Source of the DNA: Nannocystis radixulma
GTDB taxonomy: Bacteria; Myxococcota_A; Polyangia; Nannocystales; Nannocystaceae
Length of the DNA stretch: 64,000 nt
Assembly: GCF_028369095.1 (NCBI RefSeq)
Contig: NZ_JAQNDN010000024.1
Location: 153,350-217,349, forward strand
Direction of reading: 5' to 3'
Shown in pieces: positions 12,529 through 58,413 of this stretch. Position 1 is the stretch's first letter; every line of letters begins with the position of its first letter. The notes below the pieces were generated by a model, which did not search any database, was not told the DNA's origin, and saw only the letters and a program-made list of their open reading frames with translations. The position numbers were made by a program, and so were the translations under genes.

Positions 12529-12596
12529 AGGACATGTCGTGACGGACATGTCTTGAGGAGAATGTCCGAAGGATCATGGTCCTTCGGACATGGGCC
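12529..12596. repeat. 14-bp-period CATG repeat array, 5 units (12533, 12547, 12561, 12575, 12589)
   Basis: Exact 14-bp period, read from the sequence. Confidence 0.8.
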
Positions 12597-12758
12597 AAGG
12601 CCCGGACCGCTGCGGGCGGTCCGCCGCGCGTCGGCGGGGCGGGCGAGCAGCGGGCCGAGCCGACAAGTCGCCGCCGGGCGCTCGCAGGAGTCGGTCGCCC
12701 GGTTCGCCGATTTGCGCGCGGGGGCGTCCGGACCACGCTGACCGGAAGGAGCGTGGTC

Positions 12759-13391
12759 ATGCGATCTCTGCCATTGGCGGTGGTGTTGCTGGGGGCGGCG
12801 CTCGGGCCGGCGTGCGACGTCCTGCCGCCCGGCGTGCCGGTGCGGACGGCCCAGGTGCCGCTCGTGCCGGCCAATCCGGGCGAGGATACGGACGTCGCCG
12901 AGGACCCGTGCGAGGGGTTCCGGCAGCCGGGCTGCGTGCAGACCGGGTGTCCGGAAGGACAGGTGTGCCAGAAGGGCCAGGAGTGCGTGCCGTCGCTGTG
13001 CAGCTGCGATCCCGCGACGGGTCAGTCGGTCTGCAGCCTCGACTGCGGCGGCGGGACCTGCGTCGACGTGGCTGCCGTGTGCGAGCCGGTGCCGTGCACC
13101 CTCCTGTGCCCGTTCGGGTTCCAACGCGACGAGCGCGGCTGCGAGATCTGCCGCTGCCGGACCGAACCGCGCTGCGGCTGCACCGACGACGAGGACTGCC
13201 AGAAGGTGGTCCCGGGCTGCTGCCCGTGCGACCTGGGCGGCCACGAGATGGCGATCGCCAACGATTGTGTCGACCAGCTGGCGCAGTGCCCGGTGCCGCC
13301 CGACGAGGTGCCCTGCATCGCCATCGACCAGTGCACCGCGAAGGTGGCCCGCTGCGTGGCCGGGGAGTGCGTGCTGCAGAACTCGCTGTGA
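12759..13391 (+). CDS. secreted Cys-rich lipoprotein, paralog of 11650-12522 but lacking the Thr-rich linker
   Basis: RBS GGAAGGAG. Signal MRSLPLAVVLLGAALGPAC. The Cys-rich domain aligns residue by residue with its neighbour (CEGFRQPGCVQTGCPEGQVC... versus CDEFEQPGCIDKGCPEGQTC...). Confidence 0.7.
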   Translation: MRSLPLAVVLLGAALGPACDVLPPGVPVRTAQVPLVPANPGEDTDVAEDPCEGFRQPGCVQTGCPEGQVCQKGQECVPSLCSCDPATGQSVCSLDCGGGTCVDVAAVCEPVPCTLLCPFGFQRDERGCEICRCRTEPRCGCTDDEDCQKVVPGCCPCDLGGHEMAIANDCVDQLAQCPVPPDEVPCIAIDQCTAKVARCVAGECVLQNSL

Positions 13392-13435
13392 GGCCGGGGC
13401 TGAGGGCCTGCGCGCGCGGGCGGCGAGGGGACGCC

Positions 13436-13489
13436 GTTACATGCTTGAATGGACATGTCGATTGGGGCATGTCTGAACAGGCATGGTGG
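13436..13489. repeat. 14-bp-period CATG repeat array, 4 units (13440, 13454, 13468, 13482)
   Basis: Read from the sequence. Confidence 0.75.
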
Positions 13490-13645
13490 AACAGATACGA
13501 TCGTCGTGACCACGGCCGTGCGCGCTGGCGCGCGGCCGTGTCGGGGCGGCCGTGCGCGGATGCGGACGCGCGGTTCAGCGCGGCGGATCGATCCCCCGCG
13601 AGGCGGCGCGGCGGTCTACTGTGGACCGATGGCAGAGGGCAGCCG

Positions 13646-14893
13646 ATGACGGAGGCGAGCGGGCGCCGGCCCGCCGGCGAGTCGGTGCTCGGCGCGCTGC
13701 GCGAGCGTCCCGAAGACCAGGACCTCTGGGACAGGTTGCGCGTGCGCCAATTTCCGGGGGCGCGCATCAACCTCGACCCGGGATCGATCGCCACGCCGGC
13801 GCAGGCGGTGCGCGCGGCGATGCAGGGGTTCTGGGACGACGAGCTGTTCGCCTATCCCGAAGGACAGGTGCAGCGCGGGCGGGCCGAGCGGCGGCGGGCC
13901 CGGGCGCTGGCGGCCGCGCTGTGGGGCGGCGATCCGCCGGCGCTGACGGCCGGGACGAGCGAGGCGCTGCGCACGATCGCGTCGGCGCTGCGCGAGCGGC
14001 TGGGCGGGAGCGAGGCGCCGCTGGTCCTCACCAGCGGGCACGAGCATCCGGGGGCGACGGCGGCGTTCGAGCCGGGGTTCCGCGCGGTGATCCTGCCCGA
14101 TGCGGCGCTGCGCGATCCGGCGGCGGCGGGGGCGATCGCGGCGGCACAGCGGCCGGCGATCCTGCTGCTGTCGCAGGTGACCTATACGATCGGACAGGTG
14201 ATTCCCGTGCGGGAGATCGCGGCTGCGGTCCGCGCGGCGGCGCCGGAGGTGTTCGTGATCGTCGACGCGGCGCAGGCGCTGGGGCTGGTGCCGCCGGCGC
14301 TGACGGGGGCCGACTTCGTGGTCGCCAGCGGGCACAAGTGGTTGTTCGGGCCGCCGGGGGTGGGCCTGGCGTGGGCCTCGCCGCGCGCGCGCTCGGAGCT
14401 GCCGCTGCTGACCGCGGGCGAGACCAGCGAGGAGGGCGGCTGCGCGGGGCTCGAGCGGCGAGGGGCGCACGACTTCTCGGTCTACGCGGGGCTGGCTGCG
14501 GCGCTCGATCTGCACGCGGCGCTCGGACAGGTCGCGCTGAAGCGGAGCCGCACGCTGGCGGCCTGGCTGGCGCGCGAGCTCCACGAGCGACTGCTGGCGG
14601 CCGGCGTGGCGCATCAGTTCTTCGATCCGGTGACGGGCGAGGAGCGCGAGACGCCGCCGACCGCGGAGGGGTTGCTGGCGACGGTGAGCGTGACGCTGCC
14701 CGCTGTCGACGTCGAGGCGGTGTGCGCGTCGCTGCAACCCGCGGGGATCCACGTACGCTGCGTGCGCGAGCGAAGAGCCGGCAAGCGCACGTCGCTGCTG
14801 CGGCTGGGCGCCCCCTGCTACGAGAGTACGGCGCGGGTGCGTCGCGCCGTCGATGCGCTGGTCGCCGCGGTGCCGCACGCGGGACGGGCGTGA
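13646..14893 (+). CDS. class V aminotransferase / cysteine-desulfurase-like PLP enzyme
   Basis: Fold-type I PLP motifs (VIVDAAQALGLVP, ASGHKWLFGPPGVGLAW with the PLP lysine). ATG at 13646 sits inside a longer artefactual ORF. Confidence 0.7.
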   Translation: MTEASGRRPAGESVLGALRERPEDQDLWDRLRVRQFPGARINLDPGSIATPAQAVRAAMQGFWDDELFAYPEGQVQRGRAERRRARALAAALWGGDPPALTAGTSEALRTIASALRERLGGSEAPLVLTSGHEHPGATAAFEPGFRAVILPDAALRDPAAAGAIAAAQRPAILLLSQVTYTIGQVIPVREIAAAVRAAAPEVFVIVDAAQALGLVPPALTGADFVVASGHKWLFGPPGVGLAWASPRARSELPLLTAGETSEEGGCAGLERRGAHDFSVYAGLAAALDLHAALGQVALKRSRTLAAWLARELHERLLAAGVAHQFFDPVTGEERETPPTAEGLLATVSVTLPAVDVEAVCASLQPAGIHVRCVRERRAGKRTSLLRLGAPCYESTARVRRAVDALVAAVPHAGRA

Positions 14894-15037
14894 GGCTGTG
14901 AGGTCGCTAGCCGCGAAGTGGTTCGCGTCGCGCGGACGAAGCGACCATGGCGATGAAGTTGTTGGCGTGAGCTCGACGGCGAATCATTCTCGGGGATCTC
15001 GGGGCACGATCGACTCGCCGAGGAGAGGCGCGAGTCG

Positions 15038-15634
15038 TCAGCCGAACATGAACGAGAGGCCGAGGACGAAGATGCCGCGGCGGCGCTTGTCGGCGAGGAT
15101 CCGCAGGTCGTAGTCGGCGCCGAGGGCGAGCGCGATGCCCTTGCCCTTGCCCTTGTCCTTGTCGCCGAGCTTGAACGCGTAACCGAGGCCGATCTGGCCG
15201 CCGTAGCCGGGGGTGCGTGTGGTGATCTCGCGGGCGATCGGGACGTGGCTGATCGCGCCGGCGCCGGCGCGGAGATAGAAGCCGCGACTGACGTTCACCT
15301 GGATCATGGCGTCGAGGCCGGCGCCGACCTTCTGGTCCTTGTCGAAGTAGATCGTCAGGTGGCCCATGGTGCCGAGCGTGACCGCGGGCGAGATGCGGGC
15401 GCCGAACATCATGTGCGTGCGGGCGGCGGGCATGACGTCGTTGCGCAGGGGGACGACGGCGGGGCGCCACGCGAACTCGGCGAAGGGGCCGCGCTTGAAG
15501 TCGGTCGCTACCTCGCCCTCGCTCGCGCGTGCGGGCCGGGGAGCGATCACGGCGAGGGCGGCGAGGAGAGCGAGGAGGGCGAGCTTGGCGGTGGTCGGCA
15601 AGCGGACGGGGCGGGGATAGGCGAGGGCGGTCAT
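15038..15634 (-). CDS. small outer-membrane beta-barrel protein (hypothetical)
   Basis: Signal peptide ending ..PARASEG. Alternating amphipathic beta-strand pattern. C-terminus GLSFMFG. Confidence 0.45.
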   Translation of the reverse strand: MTALAYPRPVRLPTTAKLALLALLAALAVIAPRPARASEGEVATDFKRGPFAEFAWRPAVVPLRNDVMPAARTHMMFGARISPAVTLGTMGHLTIYFDKDQKVGAGLDAMIQVNVSRGFYLRAGAGAISHVPIAREITTRTPGYGGQIGLGYAFKLGDKDKGKGKGIALALGADYDLRILADKRRRGIFVLGLSFMFG

Positions 15635-15835
15635 GGCATGCCTGGGGGACCCGCAGCGCCGTGAACCGATTTCACGGGCGGTGCGGGCCGCTGCGCCCCC
15701 AACGATGCGGCCGCGGGTCGACTTACAGGCCAGTGCCGCGACCGGGCATTCCGACCTTGCTCGCTTGCCCTCCTCGCGCCTTGCCGGCCTGTCGGATCCC
15801 GGCGCGAGGAAGGATCGAAATGCTGCGGCCGCGGA

Positions 15836-16407: not shown

Positions 16408-17874
16408 ATGTCCAAGCTCTCGCTCCCCGTCGCTGCCGCTGTGGTCCTCTCGTCGCTCTCGCTGCCTGCAGCGGCGCAGGAACCCGAGGGCGCGAAGGCG
16501 GAGGGGTCGGTCTCGCTGTCGCCGGCGGGGGCGTCGGCCACGGGCGACGCGAAGGCCGGCAAGAAGAAGCGCGAGAAGAAGGCCAGGAGCGGCGACCAGA
16601 AGGGCGTGCCGTGGATCAAGCGCTACCGGCCGACGGCGATGTCGGCGGAGTTCGGGATCTTCGCCGGCCTGTTCTTCCCGGCCCGCGACCACGAGCTGTA
16701 CCTGCCGCCGCAGCCGGGCGAGCCGAACAACTGGCAGCCGTACAAGAAGGTCGCGCCCGACATCGGCCTGCGCGCCGGCTTCTATCCGCTGTCGTTCCTC
16801 GGCGTCGAGCTCGAGGGCGCGATCGTCCCGACCAAGACCGAGAACGACAACAAGGGCGCGGTGCTCGGCGGCTTCCGCGGCTACGCGATCGCACAGCTGC
16901 CGTACCGGATCTCGCCGTTCGTGCTGATCGGCCCCGGCCTGCTCGGCACGTCGGGGCTCGGCGGCGACGTCGACCCGGCGATCCACTTCGGCGGCGGCGT
17001 GAAGTTCTACATCAACAACTACCTGGCGCTGCGCCTCGACGTCCGCGACAACGCGACCGCCCAGTACGCGATCGACGGCGGCCGCACGCACCACGTCGAG
17101 GTGCTGCTCGGCCTGTCGTTCGTGCTGCGCAAGAAGCAGAAGCAGAAGGACGACCCGGACAGCGACGGCGACGGGTTCAAGGACTCGGTCGACAAGTGCC
17201 CGACGGTGCCGGGCGTGGCGCCCGACGGCTGCCCGGTGGCGGTCGAGGGCGACGCCGACGGCGACGGCTTCCTCGACTCGGTCGACGCCTGCCCGCAAGA
17301 GCCGGGTATCGCGCCCGACGGCTGCCCCGAGAAGGACCGCGACGGCGACGGCTTCGTCGACAGCAAGGACAAGTGCCCCGACGAGAAGGGCATCGCGCCC
17401 GACGGCTGCCCGCTGCCCGACAAGGACAAGGACGGGATCCCCGACCGCGACGACAAGTGCCCGGCGATCCCGGAGACCCGCAACAACTACCAGGACGACG
17501 ACGGCTGCGCCGACGAGGTCCCGCGCGCCGTCACCAAGTTCACCGGCGTCATCAAGGGCATCTTCTTCGACAGCGACAAGGACTCGATCAAGAAGGCTTC
17601 GAAGTCGACGCTCGACAACGCGGTCAAGGTGCTGAAGGACTTCCCGTCGGTGAAGGTCGAGATCAGCGGCCACACCGACGCCTCCGGCGACCGCGACCAC
17701 AACATCGACCTGTCGAAGCGGCGCGCCGACGCGGTCAAGAAGTACCTGGTCGACAAGGGGATCGACTCCGCGCGGATCACGACCCGCGGCGCCGGCCCCG
17801 ACGAGCCGATCGCCGACAACAACACCAAGGACGGCAAGGCGAAGAACCGCCGCATCGAGTTCAAGCTGCAGTGA
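16408..17874 (+). CDS. OmpA-family outer-membrane protein with thrombospondin type-3 (DxDxDGxxDxxD) repeats
   Basis: Signal peptide, N-terminal beta-barrel, four TSP3 repeats (DSDGDGFKDSVDKCP...), and a C-terminal OmpA domain (ISGHTDASGDRDHNIDLSKRRADAV). Confidence 0.8.
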   Translation: MSKLSLPVAAAVVLSSLSLPAAAQEPEGAKAEGSVSLSPAGASATGDAKAGKKKREKKARSGDQKGVPWIKRYRPTAMSAEFGIFAGLFFPARDHELYLPPQPGEPNNWQPYKKVAPDIGLRAGFYPLSFLGVELEGAIVPTKTENDNKGAVLGGFRGYAIAQLPYRISPFVLIGPGLLGTSGLGGDVDPAIHFGGGVKFYINNYLALRLDVRDNATAQYAIDGGRTHHVEVLLGLSFVLRKKQKQKDDPDSDGDGFKDSVDKCPTVPGVAPDGCPVAVEGDADGDGFLDSVDACPQEPGIAPDGCPEKDRDGDGFVDSKDKCPDEKGIAPDGCPLPDKDKDGIPDRDDKCPAIPETRNNYQDDDGCADEVPRAVTKFTGVIKGIFFDSDKDSIKKASKSTLDNAVKVLKDFPSVKVEISGHTDASGDRDHNIDLSKRRADAVKKYLVDKGIDSARITTRGAGPDEPIADNNTKDGKAKNRRIEFKLQ

Positions 17875-17953
17875 GCCGCGGCACTGGCCGCGGGCGCCTG
17901 GGCCCGCCGCGCGGCGGGCGGCGCGAGGCCGGGGATCGGGTATCGTCCCCGCC

Positions 17954-20845
17954 ATGCCCGACACGCCCCCGGCCCCCGGCCCGATCGAGGAGGCGACGGT
18001 CCTCGCCGTCGTCGGTGAGCTCATCTCCGCCGTCGGCGACGGGCGCGGCCTCGGCAACCTCCGCCTCGACGCCTCGCTCGAGCGCGAGCTCGGCCTCGGC
18101 AGCCTCGAGCGCGTCGAGCTGCTCGGCCGCCTCGAGGCCCGCCTCGGCGTGGTGTTCCCCGAGGAGGCGCTGAGCGAGGCCGACACCCCGCGCCAGCTGG
18201 TCGCGCTGGCCCGCAAGGCCCGCGGGGAGGGCGCTTCGGACATGTCCCCGAGCGCAGCTCCGAAGGAGCATGTCCGAGAGGACCTGTCCCTCCCGACAGA
18301 CGCGCCGCCGCCGGCCCCGGCCGCGGCGCAGACGCTGATCGAGGCGCTCGACTGGCACGTCGCGCACGCGCCGGGGCGGGTCCACATCATGCTGCTGCGC
18401 GAGGACGGGCGCGAGGAGCCGATCACCTACGCGGCGCTGCGGCGCGACGCCGGGCGGGTGGCGGCGGGGCTGCGGCGGCGCGGGCTCAAGCCGGGCGGCA
18501 AGGTGGCGATCATGCTGCCGACGTCGCGCGGCTACTTCGCGGCGTTCATGGGCGCGCTGCTGGCCGGCGGGGTGCCGGTGCCGTTGTACCCGCCGTTCCG
18601 CCTCGACCGGATCGCCGAGTACATCCAGCGCGAGGCGAAGATCCTGGCCAACGCCGAGGCCGAGGTGCTGATCACGTTCGCCCGCGCGGCCCGGGTCGCC
18701 GAGCTGATCCGCGACCAGGTGCCGGCGCTCGGGCAGGTGCTCGACGTCGACGAGGCGCTGGCCGACGCCAGCCTCGACACGGCGGTGGCGGCCGACCTGC
18801 GCGGCGAGGACACGGCGCTGCTGCAGTACACGTCGGGCAGCACCGGCGACCCGAAGGGCGTCGAGCTGACGCACGCCAACGTCCTCGCCAACATCCGCGC
18901 GGCGGCCGAGGGCTGCGCGCTGCGGGCCGGCGACGTGATGGTCAGCTGGCTGCCGCTCTACCACGACATGGGGCTCGTCGGCGGGTGGCTGATGAACCTG
19001 TACTTCGGGACACCCACGGTGATCCTGTCGCCGGTGACCTTCCTGGCCCGGCCGGAGCGGTGGCTGCAGGCGTTCTCGAGCTACCACGGCACGATCGCGT
19101 GCGCGCCGAACTTCGCGTTCGACCTGTGCGTCAAGCGGGTCGCGCCCGAGGCGATCGCGCCGCTGCAGCTGGGCCAGGTCCGGGCGCTGCTCAACGGCTC
19201 CGAGCCGATCCTGCCGGCCACCCTCGACCGCTTCGCCGAGCACCTGGCGCCGGCGGGCTTCCACCGCGAGGCGCTGTTCTGCGCCTACGGTCTGGCCGAG
19301 AACATGGTCGCGGTGACGTTCCCGCCGCCGGGCCGCGGGCCGCTTGTCGATCGCGTCGAGCGCACGACCTTCGAGGCGACGGGCGAGGCGCGGCAGGCCG
19401 CCGCCGACGCGCCCGAGGGCGAGGTGCTGCACTTCGTCGGCTGCGGCGCGGCGGTGCCGAAGCACGAGGTGCGGATCGCCGACGAGGCCGGCGCCGCGCT
19501 GCCCGATCGGCAGCAGGGCCGGATCCTGTTCCGCGGGCCGTCGACGTTCAAGGGCTACTACGGCAACCCGGAGGCGACCGCGAAGGTCAAGCTCGAGGGC
19601 GGCTGGGTCGACTCGGGCGACCTCGGGTACATGGTGAACGGCGAGCTGTTCATCTCGGGTCGCGTCAAGGACCTGATCATCAAGGGCGGCCGCAACTACT
19701 ACCCGCACGAGCTCGAGGCCGCGGCGGGCGCGGTCGCGGGGGTGCGGCAGGGCTGCGTGGCGGCGTTCGCCGTGCGCGACGAGGCGGCCGGGACCGAGTC
19801 GATCGTGGTGGTCGCCGAGACGAAGGAGGAGCGGCCGGCCGCCCGCGCGGCGCTGCAGCAGAAGATCGGCGAGGCGATCGCGGCGTCGGTCGGGATCCCG
19901 CCGGACCGCGTGGTGTTGACGGCGCCCGGCGCGGTGCCGAAGACGTCGAGCGGCAAGATCCGCCGCGGCGACACCCGCAAGCTCTACCTCGCCGGCGAGC
20001 TCGGGCGCGGCCACGGCTCGTTCGCCCGCCAGGCCGCCGGGCTGTACTTGCGCGGGCTGCCGCGCCGAGCTCGCGCGCTGGCCGGGCGCGCTGGCGAGGT
20101 CGCGTACGGCGGCTTCGCCCTCGGCACCTTCGGCGGCATGCTCGCCGCCTCGACCGCGGCCGGCCGGCTGATCCCGTCGGGCGCGCCGCTGCGGAAGTTC
20201 TCGCGCCAGGTCGCCCGCGCGACGATGGCGACGATCGGCCTGCGCCCGAACGTGACTGGCCTCGAGAACATGCCCCAAGGGCCATGTATCCTCGCGCCCA
20301 ACCACTGCAGCTACCTCGACCCGTTCGTGCTGCTGGCGGCGCTGCCCGACACGATCCGCTTCGTGGTCAAGGGCGAGTGCCGCGACAACCGGGCGTTCGG
20401 ACCGCTGATCCGCCGGGCCGGTCACGTGCTGATCGAGCGGCTGCAGGCAGAGCGGGCGCTGGCCGGGCTCGAGGCCGTGGCGGAGGTGCTGCGCGCGGGC
20501 GCGCCGGTGGTGGTGTTCCCGGAGGGCACGTTCAGCCGCGAGGCCGGGCTGCGGCCGTTCAAGCTCGGCGCGTTCCGCCTGGCCGCCGAGACCGGCGTGC
20601 CGGTGGTGCCGATCGCGCTGCGGGGCACCCGCAACGCGCTGCACGACGGCACCTGGCTCCCGCGACATGTCCAGATCGATGTCCAGGTGCTCCCGCCGAT
20701 CACGCCCGAGGGCAAGACGCTGGTCGACATCGTCCGCCTGCGCGACCTCACCGCCGACGCGATCGCGGCCCACATCGACGAGCCCCGCCTGCACGCGGTG
20801 ATGGTGGCGGGGATCCAGGGCCTCGACCCGAGCGAGCGCGGCTGA
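17954..20845 (+). CDS. tri-domain fusion: acyl carrier protein, fatty-acyl-AMP ligase and 1-acyl-sn-glycerol-3-phosphate acyltransferase (ElbD/Aas-like lipid-modifying enzyme)
   Basis: One 963-codon frame with no internal stop. ACP site LGLGSLERVEL. AMP-binding motifs TSGSTGDPKGVELTH, YGLAEN and GELFISGRVKDLI. Acyltransferase HxxxxD (NHCSYLDPF) and FPEGTFS. Confidence 0.7.
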   Translation: MPDTPPAPGPIEEATVLAVVGELISAVGDGRGLGNLRLDASLERELGLGSLERVELLGRLEARLGVVFPEEALSEADTPRQLVALARKARGEGASDMSPSAAPKEHVREDLSLPTDAPPPAPAAAQTLIEALDWHVAHAPGRVHIMLLREDGREEPITYAALRRDAGRVAAGLRRRGLKPGGKVAIMLPTSRGYFAAFMGALLAGGVPVPLYPPFRLDRIAEYIQREAKILANAEAEVLITFARAARVAELIRDQVPALGQVLDVDEALADASLDTAVAADLRGEDTALLQYTSGSTGDPKGVELTHANVLANIRAAAEGCALRAGDVMVSWLPLYHDMGLVGGWLMNLYFGTPTVILSPVTFLARPERWLQAFSSYHGTIACAPNFAFDLCVKRVAPEAIAPLQLGQVRALLNGSEPILPATLDRFAEHLAPAGFHREALFCAYGLAENMVAVTFPPPGRGPLVDRVERTTFEATGEARQAAADAPEGEVLHFVGCGAAVPKHEVRIADEAGAALPDRQQGRILFRGPSTFKGYYGNPEATAKVKLEGGWVDSGDLGYMVNGELFISGRVKDLIIKGGRNYYPHELEAAAGAVAGVRQGCVAAFAVRDEAAGTESIVVVAETKEERPAARAALQQKIGEAIAASVGIPPDRVVLTAPGAVPKTSSGKIRRGDTRKLYLAGELGRGHGSFARQAAGLYLRGLPRRARALAGRAGEVAYGGFALGTFGGMLAASTAAGRLIPSGAPLRKFSRQVARATMATIGLRPNVTGLENMPQGPCILAPNHCSYLDPFVLLAALPDTIRFVVKGECRDNRAFGPLIRRAGHVLIERLQAERALAGLEAVAEVLRAGAPVVVFPEGTFSREAGLRPFKLGAFRLAAETGVPVVPIALRGTRNALHDGTWLPRHVQIDVQVLPPITPEGKTLVDIVRLRDLTADAIAAHIDEPRLHAVMVAGIQGLDPSERG
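18237..18290. repeat. 14-bp-period repeat array, 4 units, embedded in-frame in the linker between the carrier and ligase domains
   Basis: ggacatgtcc / gcgcagctcc / gagcatgtcc / ggacctgtcc at 14-bp spacing. Confidence 0.6.
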
Positions 20846-21270
20846 CCGGGCGGACGAGCGACGGCCTCGACTTCCCCGCCGCCGCGAGGAAGTGATCGGC
20901 TCGTCGCGTACGTCGCGTCCGCCGGTCGATGTCCGGCGGGTCGACGTCCTGGTGCACCCGGCGCGTGCCGATGAGCTCGGGTCGTGCCCGGGTCGTCCGC
21001 GGCGTCTCGTGGCGCCAGCAGGATGCGGCCGGAGGTGCGGATGATTGGAAGTTGCAGGAGATGTGCGGCTGGCTCGTGTCTTGCTGTCACACTCGAGTCC
21101 TGTGTTTGTGCCGGCTCGAGGTCGTGTCGACTGGTTCCAGGGCGCTGCTGGCGGCGGTCGGCGGACACGCCGCGGCGGACACATGACCGATCGGTCAGGC
21201 CGCCGACGCGTGACATGAGGCGCATCGCCAGGAGGTTGAAACCGTGTGCGCGCGGGACTAGCGTCAGGGC

Positions 21271-22209
21271 GTGTCACCGACGCGTCGCGCGCTCTTGAAG
21301 GCCGCTCCCGCTCTGATCTTCGCTGGTTGTACGCCGCCGTCGATCACGACGCCGGTGGTGAAGAAGAGCGCGAAGCTGCGAGAGGTGACGGCGATGCATC
21401 CGTTCCAGCCGTCGCGCGACGGGGCAGGCGTGACGATCCGGCGCGCCCTCGGTCACCGCGGCTTGCCGGACCTCGACCCGTTCCTGCTGCTCGACGAGAT
21501 CCGCAGCGACCGCCCCGACGAGTACCAGGCGGGGTTTCCCGAGCATCCGCACCGCGGCTTCGAGACCGTCTCGTACGTGCTCGCGGGGGCGTTCGAGCAC
21601 CGCGACAGCGTCGGCAACCACGGGCGGATCGGCGCCGGGGCGACGCAGTGGATGACGGCCGGCCGCGGGATCGTGCACGAGGAGATGCCGCGCCAGCAGG
21701 ACGGCGGCAAGCTGTGGGCCTTCCAGCTGTGGGTGAACCTGCCGGCGGCGGAGAAGATGACCAAGCCCCGCTACCAGGAGCTGGGGCCGGAGACGATCCC
21801 GATGCTGACCGTCGACGACGCGCAGGTGCGGCTGGTCGCCGGCGAGCTGGCCGGGCAGCGCGGGCCGGTCGACGGGGTGACGGTCCGGCCGCTGCTGATG
21901 GACGTGACGCTCGAGCCCGGGGCGGGTCTGCGCCAGCCGATCGCCTGCGACCTGGCCGCGTTCGCCTACGTGCTCGAGGGCGCGGCCCGGTTCGGCGGCG
22001 AGGGCCGCGAATTGCTCAAGGGACAGGTCGGCGTGCTCGGCCAGGGCAACACGCTGGCGCTGTCCAGCGACGCTGGGGCGCGCCTCCTGCTGCTCGCCGG
22101 CCGGCCGCTGCGCGAGCCGGTGGCCCGCCGCGGGCCGTTCGTGATGAACACGGAAGACGAGCTGCGCCAGGCGTTCGCCGACTACCGCTCGGGCCGGCTG
22201 ATCGGCTGA
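21271..22209 (+). CDS. pirin-family cupin protein; N-terminus looks like a Tat signal plus lipobox (alternative cytoplasmic start at ATG 21394)
   Basis: Pirin motifs (VTIRRALG, HPHRGFETVSYVLAGAFEHRDS). The N-terminus TRRALLKAAPALIFAGC is twin-arginine-like. Confidence 0.75.
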   Translation: MSPTRRALLKAAPALIFAGCTPPSITTPVVKKSAKLREVTAMHPFQPSRDGAGVTIRRALGHRGLPDLDPFLLLDEIRSDRPDEYQAGFPEHPHRGFETVSYVLAGAFEHRDSVGNHGRIGAGATQWMTAGRGIVHEEMPRQQDGGKLWAFQLWVNLPAAEKMTKPRYQELGPETIPMLTVDDAQVRLVAGELAGQRGPVDGVTVRPLLMDVTLEPGAGLRQPIACDLAAFAYVLEGAARFGGEGRELLKGQVGVLGQGNTLALSSDAGARLLLLAGRPLREPVARRGPFVMNTEDELRQAFADYRSGRLIG

Positions 22210-22229: not shown

Positions 22230-22296
22230 CGGGCATGTCCGGGAGGGCATGTCCCAGGATGTATGCTCGAAGGGACATGCCCCTCGGCGCATGTCC
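22230..22296. repeat. 14-bp-period CATG repeat array, 5 units (22234, 22248, 22262, 22276, 22290)
   Basis: Read from the sequence. It lies between convergent genes. Confidence 0.8.
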
Positions 22297-25639: not shown

Positions 25640-28600
25640 TTGGTCGGGGGCAGCAGCACGAGGTTCTTGTCGGAGGCCCAGGGACGCGTGGGCCGGTGGC
25701 TGCGCAACAAGTGGCACCTCGACGGCCTGATCGCCATCGGCGGCATGGCGTCGGTGTACGCGGCGACGCATCGCAACGGCAACCGCGCCGCGCTCAAGGT
25801 GCTGCACACGCTCTTCCTGCGCAACGAGCAGGCGCGCCGTCGCTTTCTGCGCGAGGGCTACGCGGCCAACAGCGTCGGCCATCGCAACGCGGTCCACGTC
25901 CTCGACGACGACATCACCGAAGAGGGCGACGTGTACCTGGTGATGGAGCTGCTCGAGGGCGAGTCGCTCGAGGGGCGCCTGGAGCGACTCGGCCAGCTGC
26001 CGCCGATGGCGGTGCTGGAGATGACGGACGCGCTGCTCGAGGTGCTCGCGGCCGCCCACTCGAAGGGCATCCTCCACCGCGACATCAAGCCGGCCAACAT
26101 CTTCCTGTGCCGCGACGGCAGCGTGAAGCTGCTGGACTTCGGGCTCGCCCGCGTGCGCGAGCTGTCGGCCGAGGCGCTCGACCAGAGCGACGGCATCGTG
26201 TTCGGGACGGTCTCGTACATCGCGCCCGAGCAGGCCCGCGCCGACAACGAGAACCTCGATGCGCGCAGCGACCTGTGGTCGATCGCGGCGACGATCTTCC
26301 GCGCGCTGTCGGGCGAGACGGTCTTCCCGGCGGTGGGCCCGGTGATCGAGCGCCTGCTGGCGGTGGCCCGCACGCCGGCGCGTTCGCTGGCGACGCTGCG
26401 ACCCGACTTGCCCAGGCCGCTCATCGAGCTGGTCGACCGCGCGCTGGCGTTCGAGCCGGTGGCCCGCTGGCCGAGCGCCAACGTGATGCGCGTGGTGGTC
26501 CAGGATGTCCTCAACCAGCTGAGCGAGCAGGACGACTGGGAGGAGCCGAGCGCGTCGCCGCTGCGTCCGGTCGTGGCGCCCACGGCGAGCGGCCCGCGGC
26601 CCAAGACCGACCCCATGGCGGGCTCGTTCCGCCCGCGCAGCCTGCCCGCGCCGCCGCCCCCGGTCCAGAAGTCGCCGGCGCGCGTGAGCGGGCCGTTCGC
26701 CAACCTGGCCGATGGGACAGGGGGGGAAGAGTTCGAGATCAACGTCGACGAGACGCTGCGCAACAAGGCGCTGGCGGCCGGCGGCGGACCGAGCGCGAGC
26801 GTCAGCGAGACGCCCAAGGGGCGCTCGCGCACGCTGCTGACCCGCGAGGGGCGGGCCGAGCTGCGCAAGATCCTCGAGGAGCGTCGCTCCTCGCTGGGGA
26901 TCCCCGAGCGGCCCGCAGACCGGCCGGAGTCGAAGCCGGTCAAGGCCGCCGAGCCGGTGAAGTCCGAGGAGGAGATCGCCGAGGAGCTCGAGTGGGAGCG
27001 CCTGCGCGCCGCGGCTGTCGCTGCGTCCGCGCCCGCGCCTGCGCCGGAATCGGCGAGTGAGCCCGACGAGCCGGAGATCGATCAGGACGCTGCGGCTGCG
27101 GAGACGATCGCCGCGGCCGCGGCCGAGGACGAGGAGCCGCTGGCCGAGAGCGGGTCTTATCCCAGCGAGGGCACGGAGGCCGGCGAGGGCGAGGCCGGCG
27201 AGGGCGAGGGCGACGAGGGCGGGTACGCGGAGGTCGAAGAATTCGACGAGGCCGAGGTCGACGAGCTCGAGGACGGCGAACCCGATCCCAACGAGGACAC
27301 CGTCCAGATGACGATGCCCGCCGAGCTGCCGGTCCCGGAGAGCGTGCGGGCGGCGCAAGCGGCAGGTTCGTCCGGACATGTCGGATCGGACATGTCGCGC
27401 GGTGCAGGTCCTTTGGGGCCTGTCCCGGGGGTCGTGCGACCCGGACCGCTCCCACCCGGCGCGTCGGGGCCGCTGCCGGTGGCGGCGCGACCGGCGGGGC
27501 AGACGGTGGTCGGGCCGGCCCCGCTGCCGCCCGGGGTCTCGGGGCCAGCCCCGCGGGCCGGGCTTGGGACCGCGACGCCCGGCCTCGCGCGGGGCGCGTC
27601 CGGGCCCGTGCCGGCCACGCCGGCAGCGCCGCGGCAGCCGCTCGGGACAGGTCTTTCGGGACCTGTTCCAACGGCCAGCCGACCGCCGACGCAGGGGCCG
27701 CCGCCGGGCGTGGGAGTTTCGGGTCCGGTGCCGGGAGCGCGGCCGGCGACGCCGGCGCAGGGGCAGCCTGCCGTGGGGATCCCGGGCCTTGGAGCGCGAC
27801 CGGCCGCACCGGCGCAGGGGCAACCTGCCGTGGGAGCGCCGGGTCCGGCGCGGCCGGCGACGCCGGCGCAGGGGCAGCCTATCGTCGGAGTTTCGCCGGC
27901 GACGCCGGCGCGCGGACAACCGGCGGTGGCGCCCGGGCTGGCCGGCGGGACAGGTACTTCCGAACCTGTCCCTGCGGGCACGAGCGCGCCTGTTGGTAGT
28001 TCGCCCGCGGCACCGCGCGGCGGGCCGGTCCCGGGACAGGGTACGCCGGCGACAGGACGCACGTTCGTGCCGCCAGGCGGCTCGCTGCCGACACGTCCCG
28101 CAGCCGAGCCGACCGGTGCAGGCAAGCCTGGTGAGGCGCCCCGCTGGAGCAGCCCCACCGCAGGTCGTCCGCCGCTCGGCTTGGGCACGACGGTCTCGGC
28201 CGCGGCCGGGCGCAGCGGCTCGGGGCCTGTGCCCGCAGCTAGCGATGCGCCGCAGTCCGCGAGCGCAGCGGGGCGCAGCGAGCCCAGCAAGGCTGCGGCG
28301 GGCGGTTCGATCGGGCAGGCTTCGGCGCGTCCGGCGAGCGGGCCGGCGAAGGCGGCGAGCGGGCCGGCGAAGGCCGCGAGCGCGGTGGCTGGGCCGGCTG
28401 CGCCGCCTCCGTCGGCGAGCGGGCCGGCGAAGGCTGCGGGCGTCGGAGCTCCGTCGGTGAGCGGGCCGGCGAAGGCGGCGAGCGCCGGGACGGCCGGTGC
28501 GATGAAGCCGGCTGGTATGACGGACAGGTCCCCCGGGACAGCCGCGCAGGCGGGCCCAGGCGCCGGTGGGTCGAGCCCGAGCGCCGCGGCGGCTGGTCCT

Positions 28601-29965: not shown

Positions 29966-30042
<77 letters not shown>

Positions 30043-30311
30043 GACGAAGGGGCCACGCTCGTACCCGATCTGTGCGGCGATCGTCAACCGCAAAGCTCAA
30101 GGGTCGGGTGGGCATGGCGTTATTTCCCCGAAGTCATGCGGATGCGCCAGCGCAGTGAGTCAGCGCAAAGGTCGCGCCGTGGGCGCGCCCGGCTCCAGGG
30201 CTTCAGATCTTGCATCTCCGCGTGCTAAGCGAACTTGCGAGCTTTCCGGCAGCCGTGACGACGCCGCGTCGCCGCGCGCCCCGCCGGCAGCTGCGCAAAA
30301 GGAGTTTCGTG

Positions 30312-31490
<1,179 letters not shown>

Positions 31491-31528
31491 ACTTTCGAGC
31501 ATGACCTCTAGGACACCGGAGATCGGAC

Positions 31529-32425
<897 letters not shown>

Positions 32426-47022: not shown

Positions 47023-47100
47023 ATGACATGCTCGAATCAGCATGTCCATGAGAACATGTCGTGACGAGCATGCTCGGGAGGACATGTCGGAACGATCACG
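47023..47100. repeat. 14-bp-period CATG repeat array, 6 units (47027, 47041, 47055, 47069, 47083, 47097)
   Basis: Exact 14-bp period. It lies between convergent genes. Confidence 0.8.
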
Positions 47101-53141: not shown

Positions 53142-53145
53142 GCGC

Positions 53146-53240
53146 GGTGTCCGATGCGACATGTCGCATCGAGCATGTCCAGGGCGACATGCCTGATCGA
53201 GCATGTCTACAGGGGCATGTCGCCGAGCCTGGCGAGATGT
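53146..53240. repeat. 14-bp-period CATG repeat array, 5-6 units (53160, 53174, 53188, 53202, 53216)
   Basis: Exact period. It lies between convergent genes. Confidence 0.8.
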
Positions 53241-56042: not shown

Positions 56043-56124
56043 CGGCCATGTCCACGGGGACATGGCCGTTTTTCTATGTCCGGAACGACATGCTCAGGAG
56101 GACATTTCCTTCAGGGCATGTCAG
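56043..56124. repeat. 14-bp-period CATG repeat array, 6 units (56047, 56061, 56075, 56089, 56103, 56117)
   Basis: Exact period. It lies between convergent genes. Confidence 0.8.
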
Positions 56125-58287: not shown

Positions 58288-58413
58288 GCGGACATCATAG
58301 CGAGCGCGTACGCGCGCCGCTGCATACCCCTGCAGATCGAGTATGCGCGACATCGGCCGGCAGCGGCCGCTCGACCCTCTGTTACGATGGCTCCTTCCGG
58401 GGGGTGGTAGGGG

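Follow-up and report, generated by a model that had tools for sequence, protein, structure and literature searches.

A single open reading frame of Nannocystis radixulma joins an acyl-carrier domain, a fatty-acyl-AMP ligase (FAAL) and a lipid acyltransferase. What does such a protein do, and how is it related to known enzymes that combine similar parts? The gene lies at 17954-20845 in a stretch of 64,000 nucleotides, called the window here, and is read on the forward (+) strand, as are all features described below. It comprises 963 codons and a stop, and encodes a full ACP-FAAL-LPLAT fusion in the order carrier, adenylation domain, acyltransferase (T-A-AT). Judging from its sequence, the product is probably a self-sufficient, membrane-associated acyltransferase that incorporates fatty acids. 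Most likely it is an analogue of E. coli Aas that is self-contained and does not depend on CoA.

Domain architecture

All three domains exceed their Pfam cut-offs. PP-binding (PF00550) is matched at residues 36-85 (E=3e-7; 30.9 bits, cut-off 20.8), AMP-binding at 133-536 (9e-70) and Acyltransferase (PF01553) at 765-889 (6e-33). The motifs quoted in the original prediction are all found in the translation: LGLGSLERVEL at residues 46-56, NHCSYLDPF at 783-791 and FPEGTFS at 855-861. Its claim that a carrier, a FAAL and a PlsC-type acyltransferase share one polypeptide is borne out by the Pfam matches and intact motifs. Conservation is given below for 121 divergent family representatives (35-58% identity) and for a separate alignment of 24 sequences.

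The N-terminal acyl-carrier (PP-binding) domain, at residues ~11-89 (17984-18220), is a four-helix bundle in the AF2 model (pLDDT ~70-84), with helices at residues 11-27, 31-35, 50-64, 72-75 and 79-89. Ser50, whose AGC codon lies at 18101-18103, is the predicted attachment site for 4'-phosphopantetheine. In the model this residue marks the N-terminus of helix II. It is kept in 24 of 24 aligned sequences and in all 121 representatives. The local sequence here is G49-S50-L51. The family usually has DSL; Asp comes before the serine in 75% of members and Gly in 17% (n=121). The conserved (D/G)S(L/I) context for 4'-phosphopantetheinylation is therefore present. A PPTase would have to act in trans, and no PPTase gene was found within the window, which counts against the self-contained reading.

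The carrier is followed by a disordered linker, residues ~90-125 (18221-18328), with pLDDT below 50 for residues 93-110. Its length varies within the family, from 12 to 73 residues with a median of 27 (n=121); here it is 35. The segment between adenylation domain and acyltransferase (residues 684-764) is helical and has no PP-binding match. The pTM of the model is 0.60, so that the relative placement of the domains is uncertain.

A FAAL-type adenylation domain

The adenylation domain covers residues 125-683 (18326-20002) and is matched by Pfam, NCBIfam and PDB entries. Motifs A3, A5, A7, A8 and A10 are intact. T293-SGSTG-PKG, YGLAE, D556, R570 and K668 (98%) are conserved in the 24-sequence alignment and among the 121 representatives.

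The nearest relatives of this domain are FAALs. The top PDB sequence matches are all FAALs (E=1e-89 to 1e-68), and acyl-CoA ligases follow at 1e-39 or weaker. The top 27 Foldseek matches are likewise FAALs, except for one McyG A-PCP chain at rank 25. Fold, insertion and FAAL-specific helix are shared with FAAL and FAAL-ACP modules such as EcFAAL (3PBK), FadD32/Pks13 and the Synechococcus olefin-synthase FAAL (7R7E). Identity to known FAALs is 29-34%, and TM-scores reach 0.91, the value for the best fold match, 3PBK (rmsd 2.6 Å); 7R7E and FadD32 are further best matches. The best NCBIfam match of the whole protein is also a FAAL, PRK09192, at 428.7 bits against a cut-off of 600. Every NCBIfam match of the protein falls under its curated cut-off, and therefore it is not an equivalog of any named enzyme.

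Two features distinguish the subfamily. The first is the FAAL-specific insertion, residues ~455-497 (19316-19444), which aligns through EcFAAL, FadD32 and the olefin-synthase FAAL. In BLASTP, E. coli Aas has gaps of ~30 residues facing 463-492 and thus no such insertion. Other non-FAAL ANL enzymes align as two stretches, one of which stops at or before residue ~460. The Pfam AMP-binding match itself covers 404 residues against 383 model positions. The second is the FAAL-specific helix region, SPVTFLARP at residues 359-367 (19028-19054), which aligns without gaps to RTQDFAMRP of EcFAAL. A helix is predicted at 360-365 within it, and P360, P367 and W370 are 100% conserved (n=121). In FAALs, as defined in PMC8460268, this helix occludes the canonical CoA pocket. 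Insertion, helix and nearest sequence and structure relatives all point to the FAAL subfamily, and rejection of CoA is predicted.

Acyltransferase domain and probable membrane anchor

The C-terminal domain is a PlsC/LPLAT-type acyltransferase (PF01553, TIGR00530, 5KYM) at residues ~765-940 (20246-20773). Blocks I-IV are intact. Block I, N783-H784-x4-D789 (20300-20320), holds the catalytic His/Asp pair and is invariant in the 24-sequence alignment, as is PEGTF of block III, F855-P-E-G-T859 (20516-20530). The other two blocks, L826-I-E-R829 and V882-PVVP886, show no variation in that alignment either. Among the 121 representatives the His is kept in 94%, the Asp in 95%, R829 in 91%, E857 in 93%, G858 in 89% and P886 in 99%.

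Membership of the LPLAT/AGPAT superfamily is certain; PF01553 does not reveal the acceptor. The domain is matched best by the AGPAT domain model (TIGR00530, 94.8 bits, cut-off 102.95), by T. maritima PlsC (5KYM, E=4e-18 over 160 residues) and by the acyltransferase module of Aas-type proteins. The PlsC equivalog PRK15018 gives 45 bits against a cut-off of 501. A PlsB-type glycerol-3-phosphate acyltransferase was considered and rejected (NF002886, E=0.002, 16.7 bits, cut-off 721). The original prediction had named the domain a glycerol-3-phosphate acyltransferase; this name does not hold, as the domain is AGPAT/LPLAT-like rather than PlsB-like and nothing supports it over a lysolipid acyltransferase.

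With T. maritima PlsC the domain shares NHx4D, an FxxR-like motif, FPEGT, a proline-rich block IV and helices before the catalytic core. PlsC itself, of ~250 aa, stands alone and draws acyl-ACP or acyl-CoA from solution, whereas the donor of the fusion protein is presumably tethered in cis. The long helices before the core, at residues 690-700, 702-737 and 744-760 in the AF2 model (20021-20233), probably form a PlsC-type monotopic membrane anchor. Hydropathy is only moderate (maximum KD19 = 1.49), and a classical transmembrane helix is not predicted.

Distribution and genomic context

The protein is far from rare. Its family is very large: more than 120 separate clusters at 50% identity share the T-A-AT architecture. 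They come from at least ten phyla, and the cultured genera Cupriavidus, Halomonas and Methylocystis are represented. The domain order is the same in all of these divergent clusters, and co-inheritance in a fixed order argues that the three domains work together.

The gene stands alone throughout. Across 85 loci no neighbour is conserved, which fits a self-contained enzyme. Its neighbours in N. radixulma encode an OmpA-family protein and a pirin, and no PKS or NRPS context was found at the gene in the window or at related loci.

Fusions of FAALs to lysophospholipid acyltransferases have been noted before, as an unexplained architecture (PMC8460268). No functional study of any T-A-AT member was found in the searchable literature, which holds passing mentions only. 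The family is very widespread and apparently unstudied.

A proposed mechanism and its relation to Aas

The original prediction suggested that the enzyme activates a fatty acid, loads it on its own carrier and transfers it to a lysolipid. This is the most economical reading of the conserved catalytic residues of all three domains. First, the FAAL domain would adenylate a free long-chain fatty acid with ATP, as its intact A3, A5, A7, A8 and A10 motifs suggest. Second, it would reject CoA and pass the acyl group to 4'-phosphopantetheine on Ser50 of its own carrier, a step to which the FAAL-specific helix, the insertion and the invariant serine point. FAALs load holo-ACP rather than CoA (PMC8460268), and a phosphopantetheinyl carrier is likewise the expected acyl acceptor here. 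Third, the carrier would swing on its ~35-residue disordered linker and hand the acyl thioester to the PlsC-type domain, where His784 and Asp789, to judge from their motifs, would esterify it onto a membrane lysolipid. As a guess, the likeliest acceptor is a lysophospholipid, for instance 1-acyl-G3P or lyso-PE/PG.

The closest functional parallel is E. coli Aas (b2836, 2-acyl-GPE acyltransferase / acyl-ACP synthetase). Aas relies on soluble ACP in trans. Both proteins unite an ANL fatty-acid-activating module and a PF01553 lysophospholipid acyltransferase in one polypeptide, and both Aas modules are detected here by direct BLASTP. In Aas the acyl group travels as an ACP thioester, CoA is unused and the enzyme is membrane-associated; the same is predicted for the fusion protein.

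The differences are equally clear. The original prediction noted an order unlike that of Aas, and BLASTP agrees: the acyltransferase of Aas aligns at its residues 2-167 and the synthetase at 365-701 (AT-AAS), while the acyltransferase here is C-terminal (T-A-AT). The carrier is fused here. The adenylation module is of the FAAL type, with insertion and helix, and is 24% identical to that of Aas, which has neither; the acyltransferase modules are 27% identical. Membership of the Aas family was rejected: the order is reversed, a carrier is added and the Aas equivalog NF005959 gives 34.6 bits against a cut-off of 886. The protein nonetheless probably works like Aas from outside the Aas family. By analogy it would be, with the better part of the probability, an Aas with its ACP hard-wired in cis and a FAAL-type module in place of the Aas-type one.

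Aas acylates lysophospholipids delivered by LplT (PMC11416262). No lplT lies adjacent to the T-A-AT genes; an MFS gene is a neighbour in only 7 of the 85 loci, and is of the ATG22 type. In LplT-Aas triple fusions (PRK08633 / PRK06814, ~1,140 aa), lysophospholipid handling, acyltransferase and acyl-activating module are likewise united, and they are the second-best NCBIfam match of the acyltransferase domain (81 bits). These proteins, however, are arranged MFS-AT-AAS, with an N-terminal MFS transporter and no carrier domain, and the whole protein scores 193 against their cut-off of 1221.

Known FAALs differ in what they serve and where their carrier lies. They feed PKS/NRPS lines or mycolate condensation, whereas the partner here is a lipid acyltransferase on the same chain. 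Their fused carrier is C-terminal; here it is N-terminal, which is atypical for a cognate carrier.

A possible other acceptor

The same activation and carrier chemistry could serve an acceptor that is not a glycerophospholipid, for instance a lyso-ornithine lipid, another lyso-aminolipid, or a hydroxylated lipid or envelope molecule. The product would then be a specialised lipid rather than a repaired phospholipid. Such a role would suit FAALs, which classically divert fatty acids to specialised products (PMC8460268), and the LPLAT superfamily takes in aminolipid and LPS acyltransferases (PMC11631085). Models of OlsA-type lyso-ornithine-lipid O-acyltransferases do match the domain, weakly (~1e-13), and the upstream neighbour in Nannocystis encodes an OmpA-family envelope protein. 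AGPAT and PlsC/Aas models, however, match far better (95 and 81 bits against ~49), no OlsB-like or other aminolipid gene lies nearby in the window or at related loci, and a very broad distribution without cluster context suits a housekeeping membrane function better. A different acceptor is thus unlikely, while being the strongest of the rival readings.

Comparison with ElbD

The original prediction also likened the protein to the myxobacterial ether-lipid enzyme ElbD, with the reductase missing. The missing reductase is correct; the resemblance in architecture proves superficial, since the carrier precedes the adenylation domain and there is no elb context. Like the fusion protein, ElbD of Myxococcus xanthus (MXAN_1528, Q1DC43) comes from a myxobacterium and has an acyl-activating domain, a carrier and an AGPAT-like acyltransferase in one chain (PMC9131029). 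In PMC9426513 the domains of ElbD appear in the order Re, ACS, T, AT, that is Re-A-T-AT; the carrier thus follows the adenylation domain in ElbD and precedes it here, an order taken for ElbD from text descriptions rather than from its sequence. ElbD bears an N-terminal FAR1-like reductase that is essential to the ether-lipid logic, and it is encoded within the elbA-E operon.

The protein could still be an ElbD-type ether-lipid enzyme if its reductase were encoded elsewhere. The carrier-bound acyl group would be reduced to the aldehyde or alcohol in trans, and the acyltransferase would acylate an alkyl-glycerol-phosphate or DHAP intermediate. In favour of this, besides the shared domains, organisms other than myxobacteria are reported to have ElbD-like homologues that lack FAR1 (PMC9131029), and split variants of elbD exist. 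The genomic evidence runs the other way. Pfam finds no NAD_binding_4/FAR reductase domain in the protein or in seven longer relatives. The best 150 representatives, each at 523 bits or above, include neither a reductase-bearing relative nor a protein of ElbD size, and every full-length relative of up to ~1,100 aa among them aligns from near its own N-terminus. No reductase, elbB (HAD), elbC or elbE (NAD epimerase/dehydratase) recurs as a neighbour in the window or the 85 related loci. The T-A-AT family also spans many phyla without ether-lipid reports in the literature examined, and Pontiella has 'ElbD homologues' yet no ether lipids (PMC11868695). An ether-lipid role is accordingly quite improbable, more so than a different acceptor for an Aas-like enzyme.

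A dispersed repeat in the linker

Part of the linker, at about residues 95-112 (SDMSPSAAPKEHVREDLS), is encoded by an in-frame array of four 14-bp units (GGRCATGTCC-N4) at 18238-18289, which belongs to a dispersed palindromic repeat. Of the 10 positions of GGACATGTCC, the units beginning at 18238, 18252, 18266 and 18280 match 10, 6, 8 and 9, respectively. Scored together in phase, the four units reach 33 of 40, the joint best within the window; 2000 codon shuffles of the frame gave a mean of 20.5 and a maximum of 25. Tandem Repeats Finder did not call the array because two of its units are degenerate. The four-unit, 14-bp array that had been claimed for this linker is thus real. That it is a dispersed repeat translated as a linker is also confirmed: the window contains 41 copies of the 10-mer with at most one mismatch, where 1.7 would be expected, and the array encodes the one disordered segment of the predicted structure. 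The window holds 21 such arrays, and this is the only one clearly within a gene. A genome-wide 14-bp palindromic repeat would then encode part of the linker, and it may be tolerated there because only the length and flexibility of the segment matter to the protein.

Could the array itself have a function as nucleic acid, in addition to the enzyme's proposed role? It might form an RNA hairpin that pauses translation between domains, bind a protein or provide an internal start. In the last case, the in-frame ATG in unit 1 (M96), with GGGGAGGG before it and GGAGG 11 nt upstream, would give a carrier-less isoform. Relatives with as little as 66% protein identity still have the array in phase, and its RNA fold is more stable than those of shuffled sequences (z=-3.2). 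Homologous arrays are present in N. pusilla and at locus L002; loci L003 and L004, and all members outside the Nannocystaceae, do without. Met96 is not conserved, being missing from P0004, P0005, P0007, P0009 and P0020, and a search for a promoter-like site found none. A neutral insertion that decays slowly in a linker under no constraint would explain these observations equally well. The chance is therefore small, somewhat below that of an ether-lipid role, that a REP-like intergenic element was recruited into the linker and is kept by selection on both nucleic acid (DNA/RNA) and protein. Such an array might pace translation from carrier to ligase as a hairpin, or bind whatever recognises the other ~20 arrays of the window. 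Dispersed bacterial repeats that are nucleic-acid signal and coding sequence at once have rarely been documented, and this would be one.

Integrity of the reading frame

The function proposed here, an Aas-like enzyme with its own carrier, presupposes one gene. ORF listing and translation show a single frame from ATG to TGA with no internal stops, and the ATG is the first start codon past the upstream in-frame stop. The orthologue of N. pusilla is also 963 aa long and 92% identical, in keeping with the uninterrupted 963-codon frame first claimed. Stops and frameshifts were looked for around the domain junctions at 18230-18310 and 19980-20010 by sequence comparison, and none was found: both are colinear with homologues of equal length, and S689, Q693 and L697 are invariant across the second; there is therefore no frameshift.

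Long spurious ORFs are common in high-GC genomes, overlapping ORFs are listed on both strands and the first junction holds a repeat that is otherwise intergenic, but the idea that the frame is a chance ORF, or two or three genes joined by sequencing or assembly error, is effectively refuted by full-length colinear homologues with the three domains in one frame in hundreds of independent assemblies from many phyla, by conservation of both junctions, by the absence of stop codons and by a GC3 of 0.94, similarly high in adjacent genes.

Biological meaning

The T-A-AT family may form a third route of fatty-acid incorporation, independent of CoA and of soluble ACP, in many bacterial phyla. The case for this is about evenly balanced, and it is ranked as more probable than a dual function of the linker repeat. 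If the enzyme works as proposed, free fatty acids could be salvaged or lysophospholipids repaired while both the CoA pool and the soluble ACP pool are spared.

A single gene for carrier, ligase and acyltransferase

The gene at 17954-20845 (+) runs unbroken for 963 codons between its ATG start and a TGA stop, with no in-frame start codon further upstream. It has a G+C content of 73%, and its GC3 in this frame (0.94) is similar to that of neighbouring genes. Every peptide string quoted in the original prediction is found in the protein, and the three predicted domains all exceed the curated Pfam cut-offs: PP-binding at residues 36-85 (E 3e-7), AMP-binding at residues 133-536 (E 9e-70) and Acyltransferase (PF01553) at residues 765-889 (E 6e-33). 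Residues 574-683 weakly match a DIP2-like AMP C-terminal model.

The fusion is genuine and not a frameshift artefact. Both domain junctions that had been flagged for checking are colinear with full-length homologues, and the orthologue in Nannocystis pusilla has the same length (963 aa, 92% identical) and the same neighbourhood (OmpA, the fusion gene, pirin, histidine kinase). Three separate genes, or one frame broken by a frameshift, are ruled out by the single open frame and the colinear homologues.

The carrier domain

In the AlphaFold model (mean pLDDT 81.5) the carrier folds as a bundle of four helices, and Ser50 begins helix II, the canonical place for attachment. The stretch G49-S50-L-E-R-V-E-L is unchanged across an alignment of 24 sequences (47-92% identity). 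A wider comparison used 121 representatives, family members from separate 50%-identity clusters that are 35-58% identical to the query. All of them keep Ser50, the predicted site of 4'-phosphopantetheinylation. The preceding residue is Asp in 75% of these representatives, as in the canonical "DSL" of acyl carrier proteins, and Gly in the clade of Nannocystis radixulma.

The adenylation domain

The adenylation domain belongs to the fatty acyl-AMP ligase (FAAL) subfamily. Its best NCBIfam, PDB-sequence and fold matches are fatty acyl-AMP ligases, namely EcFAAL (3PBK), the Synechococcus olefin-synthase FAAL (7R7E), FadD32, FadD23 and the L. pneumophila FAAL. Against the 3PBK fold the TM-score is 0.91 and the rmsd 2.6 A. 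Three features define FAALs (Patil et al., PMC8460268): a FAAL-specific insertion, a FAAL-specific helix that blocks the usual pocket for CoA, and an alternative pocket lined with prolines. The helix region SPVTFLARP (residues 359-367) aligns without gaps to RTQDFAMRP of EcFAAL, with P360, P367 and W370 invariant (100%) across the family. The insertion, at about residues 455-497, aligns through every solved FAAL compared; in the alignment with E. coli Aas, about 30 residues of this stretch have no counterpart. The core adenylation motifs are conserved, including the A10 lysine, K668.

The acyltransferase domain

Blocks I-IV of the PlsC/LPLAT superfamily are whole and conserved (N783-H784-x4-D789, LIER829, FPEGT859 and VPVVP886). 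The original prediction called this domain a glycerol-3-phosphate acyltransferase, a name that is not supported: the PlsB-type model in NCBIfam has essentially no match to the domain. Taken alone, the domain scores highest with the AGPAT model TIGR00530 (94.8 bits, just under the cut-off of 102.95). The next-best matches are an Aas-type acyltransferase module (81 bits) and T. maritima PlsC (5KYM, E=4e-18), and OlsA lyso-ornithine-lipid models reach about 49 bits. The AGPAT, Aas and PlsC matches, with PlsB essentially unmatched, mark it as a lysolipid-type O-acyltransferase, whose acceptor is not readable from sequence. In the model three helices (690-700, 702-737 and 744-760) stand before the catalytic core in a PlsC-like manner; no classical transmembrane helix is predicted in the protein by Kyte-Doolittle analysis.

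Distribution of the family

The gene is an ordinary orthologue inside a large family. A word-indexed search returned more than 100 full-length matches that share the three Pfam domains; they belong to Nannocystaceae, other Myxococcota and NC10/Methylomirabilota. An exhaustive HMMER search of 1.84 billion representatives listed over 120 clusters, 880-1,100 aa in length, with end-to-end alignments. In clusters of slightly greater length the layout is again PP-binding, AMP-binding and Acyltransferase, and no reductase domain was found in them. A scan of species-representative genomes places the family in at least 10 phyla, a measure of taxonomic breadth and not of completeness, since the closest Nannocystis genomes are not among the matches listed. 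Among those matches, full-length copies occur in Methylomirabilota, Acidobacteriota, Nitrospirota, Anaeromyxobacter, Entotheonella, Alpha-, Beta- and Gammaproteobacteria, Planctomycetota, Actinomycetota, Thermodesulfobacteriota and Bdellovibrionota; cultured carriers listed include Cupriavidus, Paraburkholderia, Halomonas and Methylocystis, which are easy to grow, as well as Thiocystis violacea, Imhoffiella, Zobellella and Neptuniibacter.

Homologues bear generic database names ("AMP-binding protein", "1-acyl-sn-glycerol-3-phosphate acyltransferase", "fatty-acyl-CoA synthase"). Several wordings of a literature search found no functional study of the fusion. FAAL "fusion with lysophospholipid acyltransferases" is mentioned in passing (PMC8460268), in a paper whose supplements do not list the fusion proteins; "ElbD-like homologues lacking FAR1" are likewise mentioned in passing, and a 2025 FAAL review does not cover the fusion. 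The family is an uncharacterised variant of the Aas/ElbD type of multidomain lipid enzyme.

Relationship to ElbD

ElbD of Myxococcus xanthus has an N-terminal FAR1-like reductase together with acyl-CoA synthetase, ACP and AGPAT-like domains, and is encoded in the elbA-E operon (PMC9131029). Its domain order is listed as reductase, synthetase, thiolation, acyltransferase (PMC9426513). The likeness to ElbD that had been proposed stands in part. The Nannocystis protein does lack the reductase domain, as predicted, but its carrier lies upstream of the adenylation domain whereas that of ElbD lies downstream, and it has no elb gene context. No ElbD-like architecture was found in the best 150 matches of the exhaustive HMMER search. 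By its published description, ElbD is a useful analogy but not a member of this family.

The distinction matters for surveys that score "ElbD homologues" by BLAST (E<1e-30, identity >=30%; PMC11868695; bioRxiv 10.64898/2026.06.23.733905). The reductase-less family is abundant in the phyla that these surveys cover, and its members may pass such filters, raising estimates of ether-lipid potential. Pontiella is reported to have "ElbD homologues" and to lack ether lipids (PMC11868695), which would fit reductase-less proteins having been counted as ElbD homologues.

Genomic context

The gene lies between an OmpA/TSP3 protein gene upstream and a pirin gene downstream, with a PAS histidine kinase and a Ser/Thr kinase beyond them. 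Among the related loci compared, this synteny is kept in N. pusilla only. When 2,189 flanking ORFs of 85 loci were clustered all against all, no conserved operon partner emerged. The most frequent neighbour, an ABC ATPase, occurs in 9 of the 85; an acyl-CoA synthetase and an ATG22/MFS transporter follow with 7 each, and then an OMP beta-barrel with 6. The window was found to contain neither a PPTase nor a reductase or elb-like gene, and Rfam has no match in or near the fusion gene, which behaves as a self-contained unit.

The ATG22/MFS-type transporters (L026, L032, L037, L044, L052, L063 and L071) lie next to the homologue, mostly no more than a few hundred bases away. The pairing recalls lplT-aas of E. 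coli, but the MFS subfamily is different and the pairing far from universal. In one locus only (L002, with a 66%-identical homologue), a patatin-like phospholipase gene (14587-15732) lies 3.7 kb downstream; together, a phospholipase A and an enzyme that re-acylates lysolipids would form a Lands-cycle pair.

Several other features of the window were recorded. A strong AT skew (+0.31) at 17000-18000 coincides with the 3' half of the upstream OmpA/thrombospondin-type-3-repeat gene and presumably stems from the codon bias of Asp-rich repeats. A tRNA gene at 29969-30042 (-), a thiolase and 3-hydroxyacyl-CoA dehydrogenase pair at 30159-32425 (+), about 10 kb downstream, and a VgrG-like gene (phage GPD / gp5) at 58411-60543 (+) are unlinked to the fusion gene.

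A repeat-encoded linker

The repeat GGACATGTCC occurs 41 times in the window with at most one mismatch, against 1.7 expected. The occurrences group into 21 arrays of 3-6 units with an exact 14-bp period and the consensus GGRCATGTCC-N4. Examples are found at 562-599, 12530-12595, 22231-22296, 27360-27425, 47024-47089, 53143-53222 and 56044-56123. The arrays are REP/BIME-like in that 18 are intergenic, several of them between convergent genes. Two others lie within about 100 nt of an uncertain start codon, and one, at 18238-18289, falls between two conserved protein domains. Because the repeat core is palindromic, adjacent units can pair, with 10-bp stems and 4-nt loops. The repeat family has no Rfam match.

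One probably over-extended ORF, of 767 codons at 12590-14893 (+), takes its upstream ATG from the array at 12530-12595. Its class-V aminotransferase domain covers residues 453-723 only. In N. pusilla the orthologue is annotated with 412 aa, and antistasin-domain genes fill the region in front of the aminotransferase.

The array at 18238-18289 lies in the linker between carrier and ligase. On a custom phased-unit measure it scores 33/40, the joint highest in the window, and 2000 codon shuffles of the ORF gave a maximum of 25; Tandem Repeats Finder, run on 17500-21300, did not report it. It encodes approximately residues 95-112, inside the model's only long disordered stretch (93-110, pLDDT <50). 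Nowhere does the family alignment vary more in length than in this linker (12-73 residues, with a median of 27 and 35 here).

That a dispersed repeat became a coding linker, as first proposed, is supported by the size of the repeat family, the phased score and the relatives. N. pusilla has both the same linker array and the dispersed repeat. At the corresponding position L002 carries a homologous array of a CAGG variant, and the dispersed repeat is found in that genome too. L003 (59% identity) and L004 (47%) have neither. This pattern places the gain of the array within the repeat-carrying Nannocystaceae lineage.

A function of the array at the nucleic-acid level is possible but unproven. Folding of the region is more stable than that of shuffled sequences (z=-3.2). 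Unit 1 contains an in-frame ATG (Met96); an internal start there, with GGAGG upstream, was rejected as a conserved feature, as the Met is absent from many close relatives and a search for promoter-like sites found none. About 70 nt downstream of the stop codon lies a 15-bp tandem repeat (20912-20949, 2.7 copies, GTCGACGTCCGGCCG) with GATGTCC/GACGTCC cores, which may be related, in degenerate form, to the 14-bp family.

The linker illustrates how repeat DNA from between genes can, in nature, be translated into a disordered tether, and it draws attention to a striking 14-bp repeat family of Nannocystaceae genomes that is uncharacterised.

Proposed mechanism and significance

The three domains are inherited together, in one fixed order, and none has lost its catalytic or attachment residues. 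The most economical reading is the one originally predicted, in which a single protein would activate a fatty acid, load it on itself and transfer it to a lysolipid. The FAAL domain would convert fatty acid and ATP to acyl-AMP. The carrier within the same protein would then receive the acyl group on the phosphopantetheine of Ser50; FAALs reject CoA. Finally, the His784/Asp789 acyltransferase would hand it to a lysolipid at the membrane. The analysis establishes the identity of the domains, their conserved residues, the architecture and the distribution; each catalytic step, the membrane association and the acceptor are inferred.

The reaction logic would be that of E. coli Aas, an enzyme that re-acylates the lysophospholipids which LplT delivers (PMC11416262). 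Unlike Aas, the fusion has its ACP in cis, a FAAL-type adenylation module and, as predicted, a different domain order, which is reversed; BLASTP identity is 24% in the adenylation region and 27% in the acyltransferase.

The predicted chemistry is unsurprising. The family is notable for its broad distribution, the absence of any study, its bearing on ElbD-based surveys and its repeat-encoded linker. If it performs one-protein fatty-acid salvage or lysophospholipid repair, it would fill a gap alongside FadD, Aas and FakAB in the incorporation of free fatty acids, and FAALs would gain a role in primary membrane metabolism, beyond PKS and NRPS pathways.
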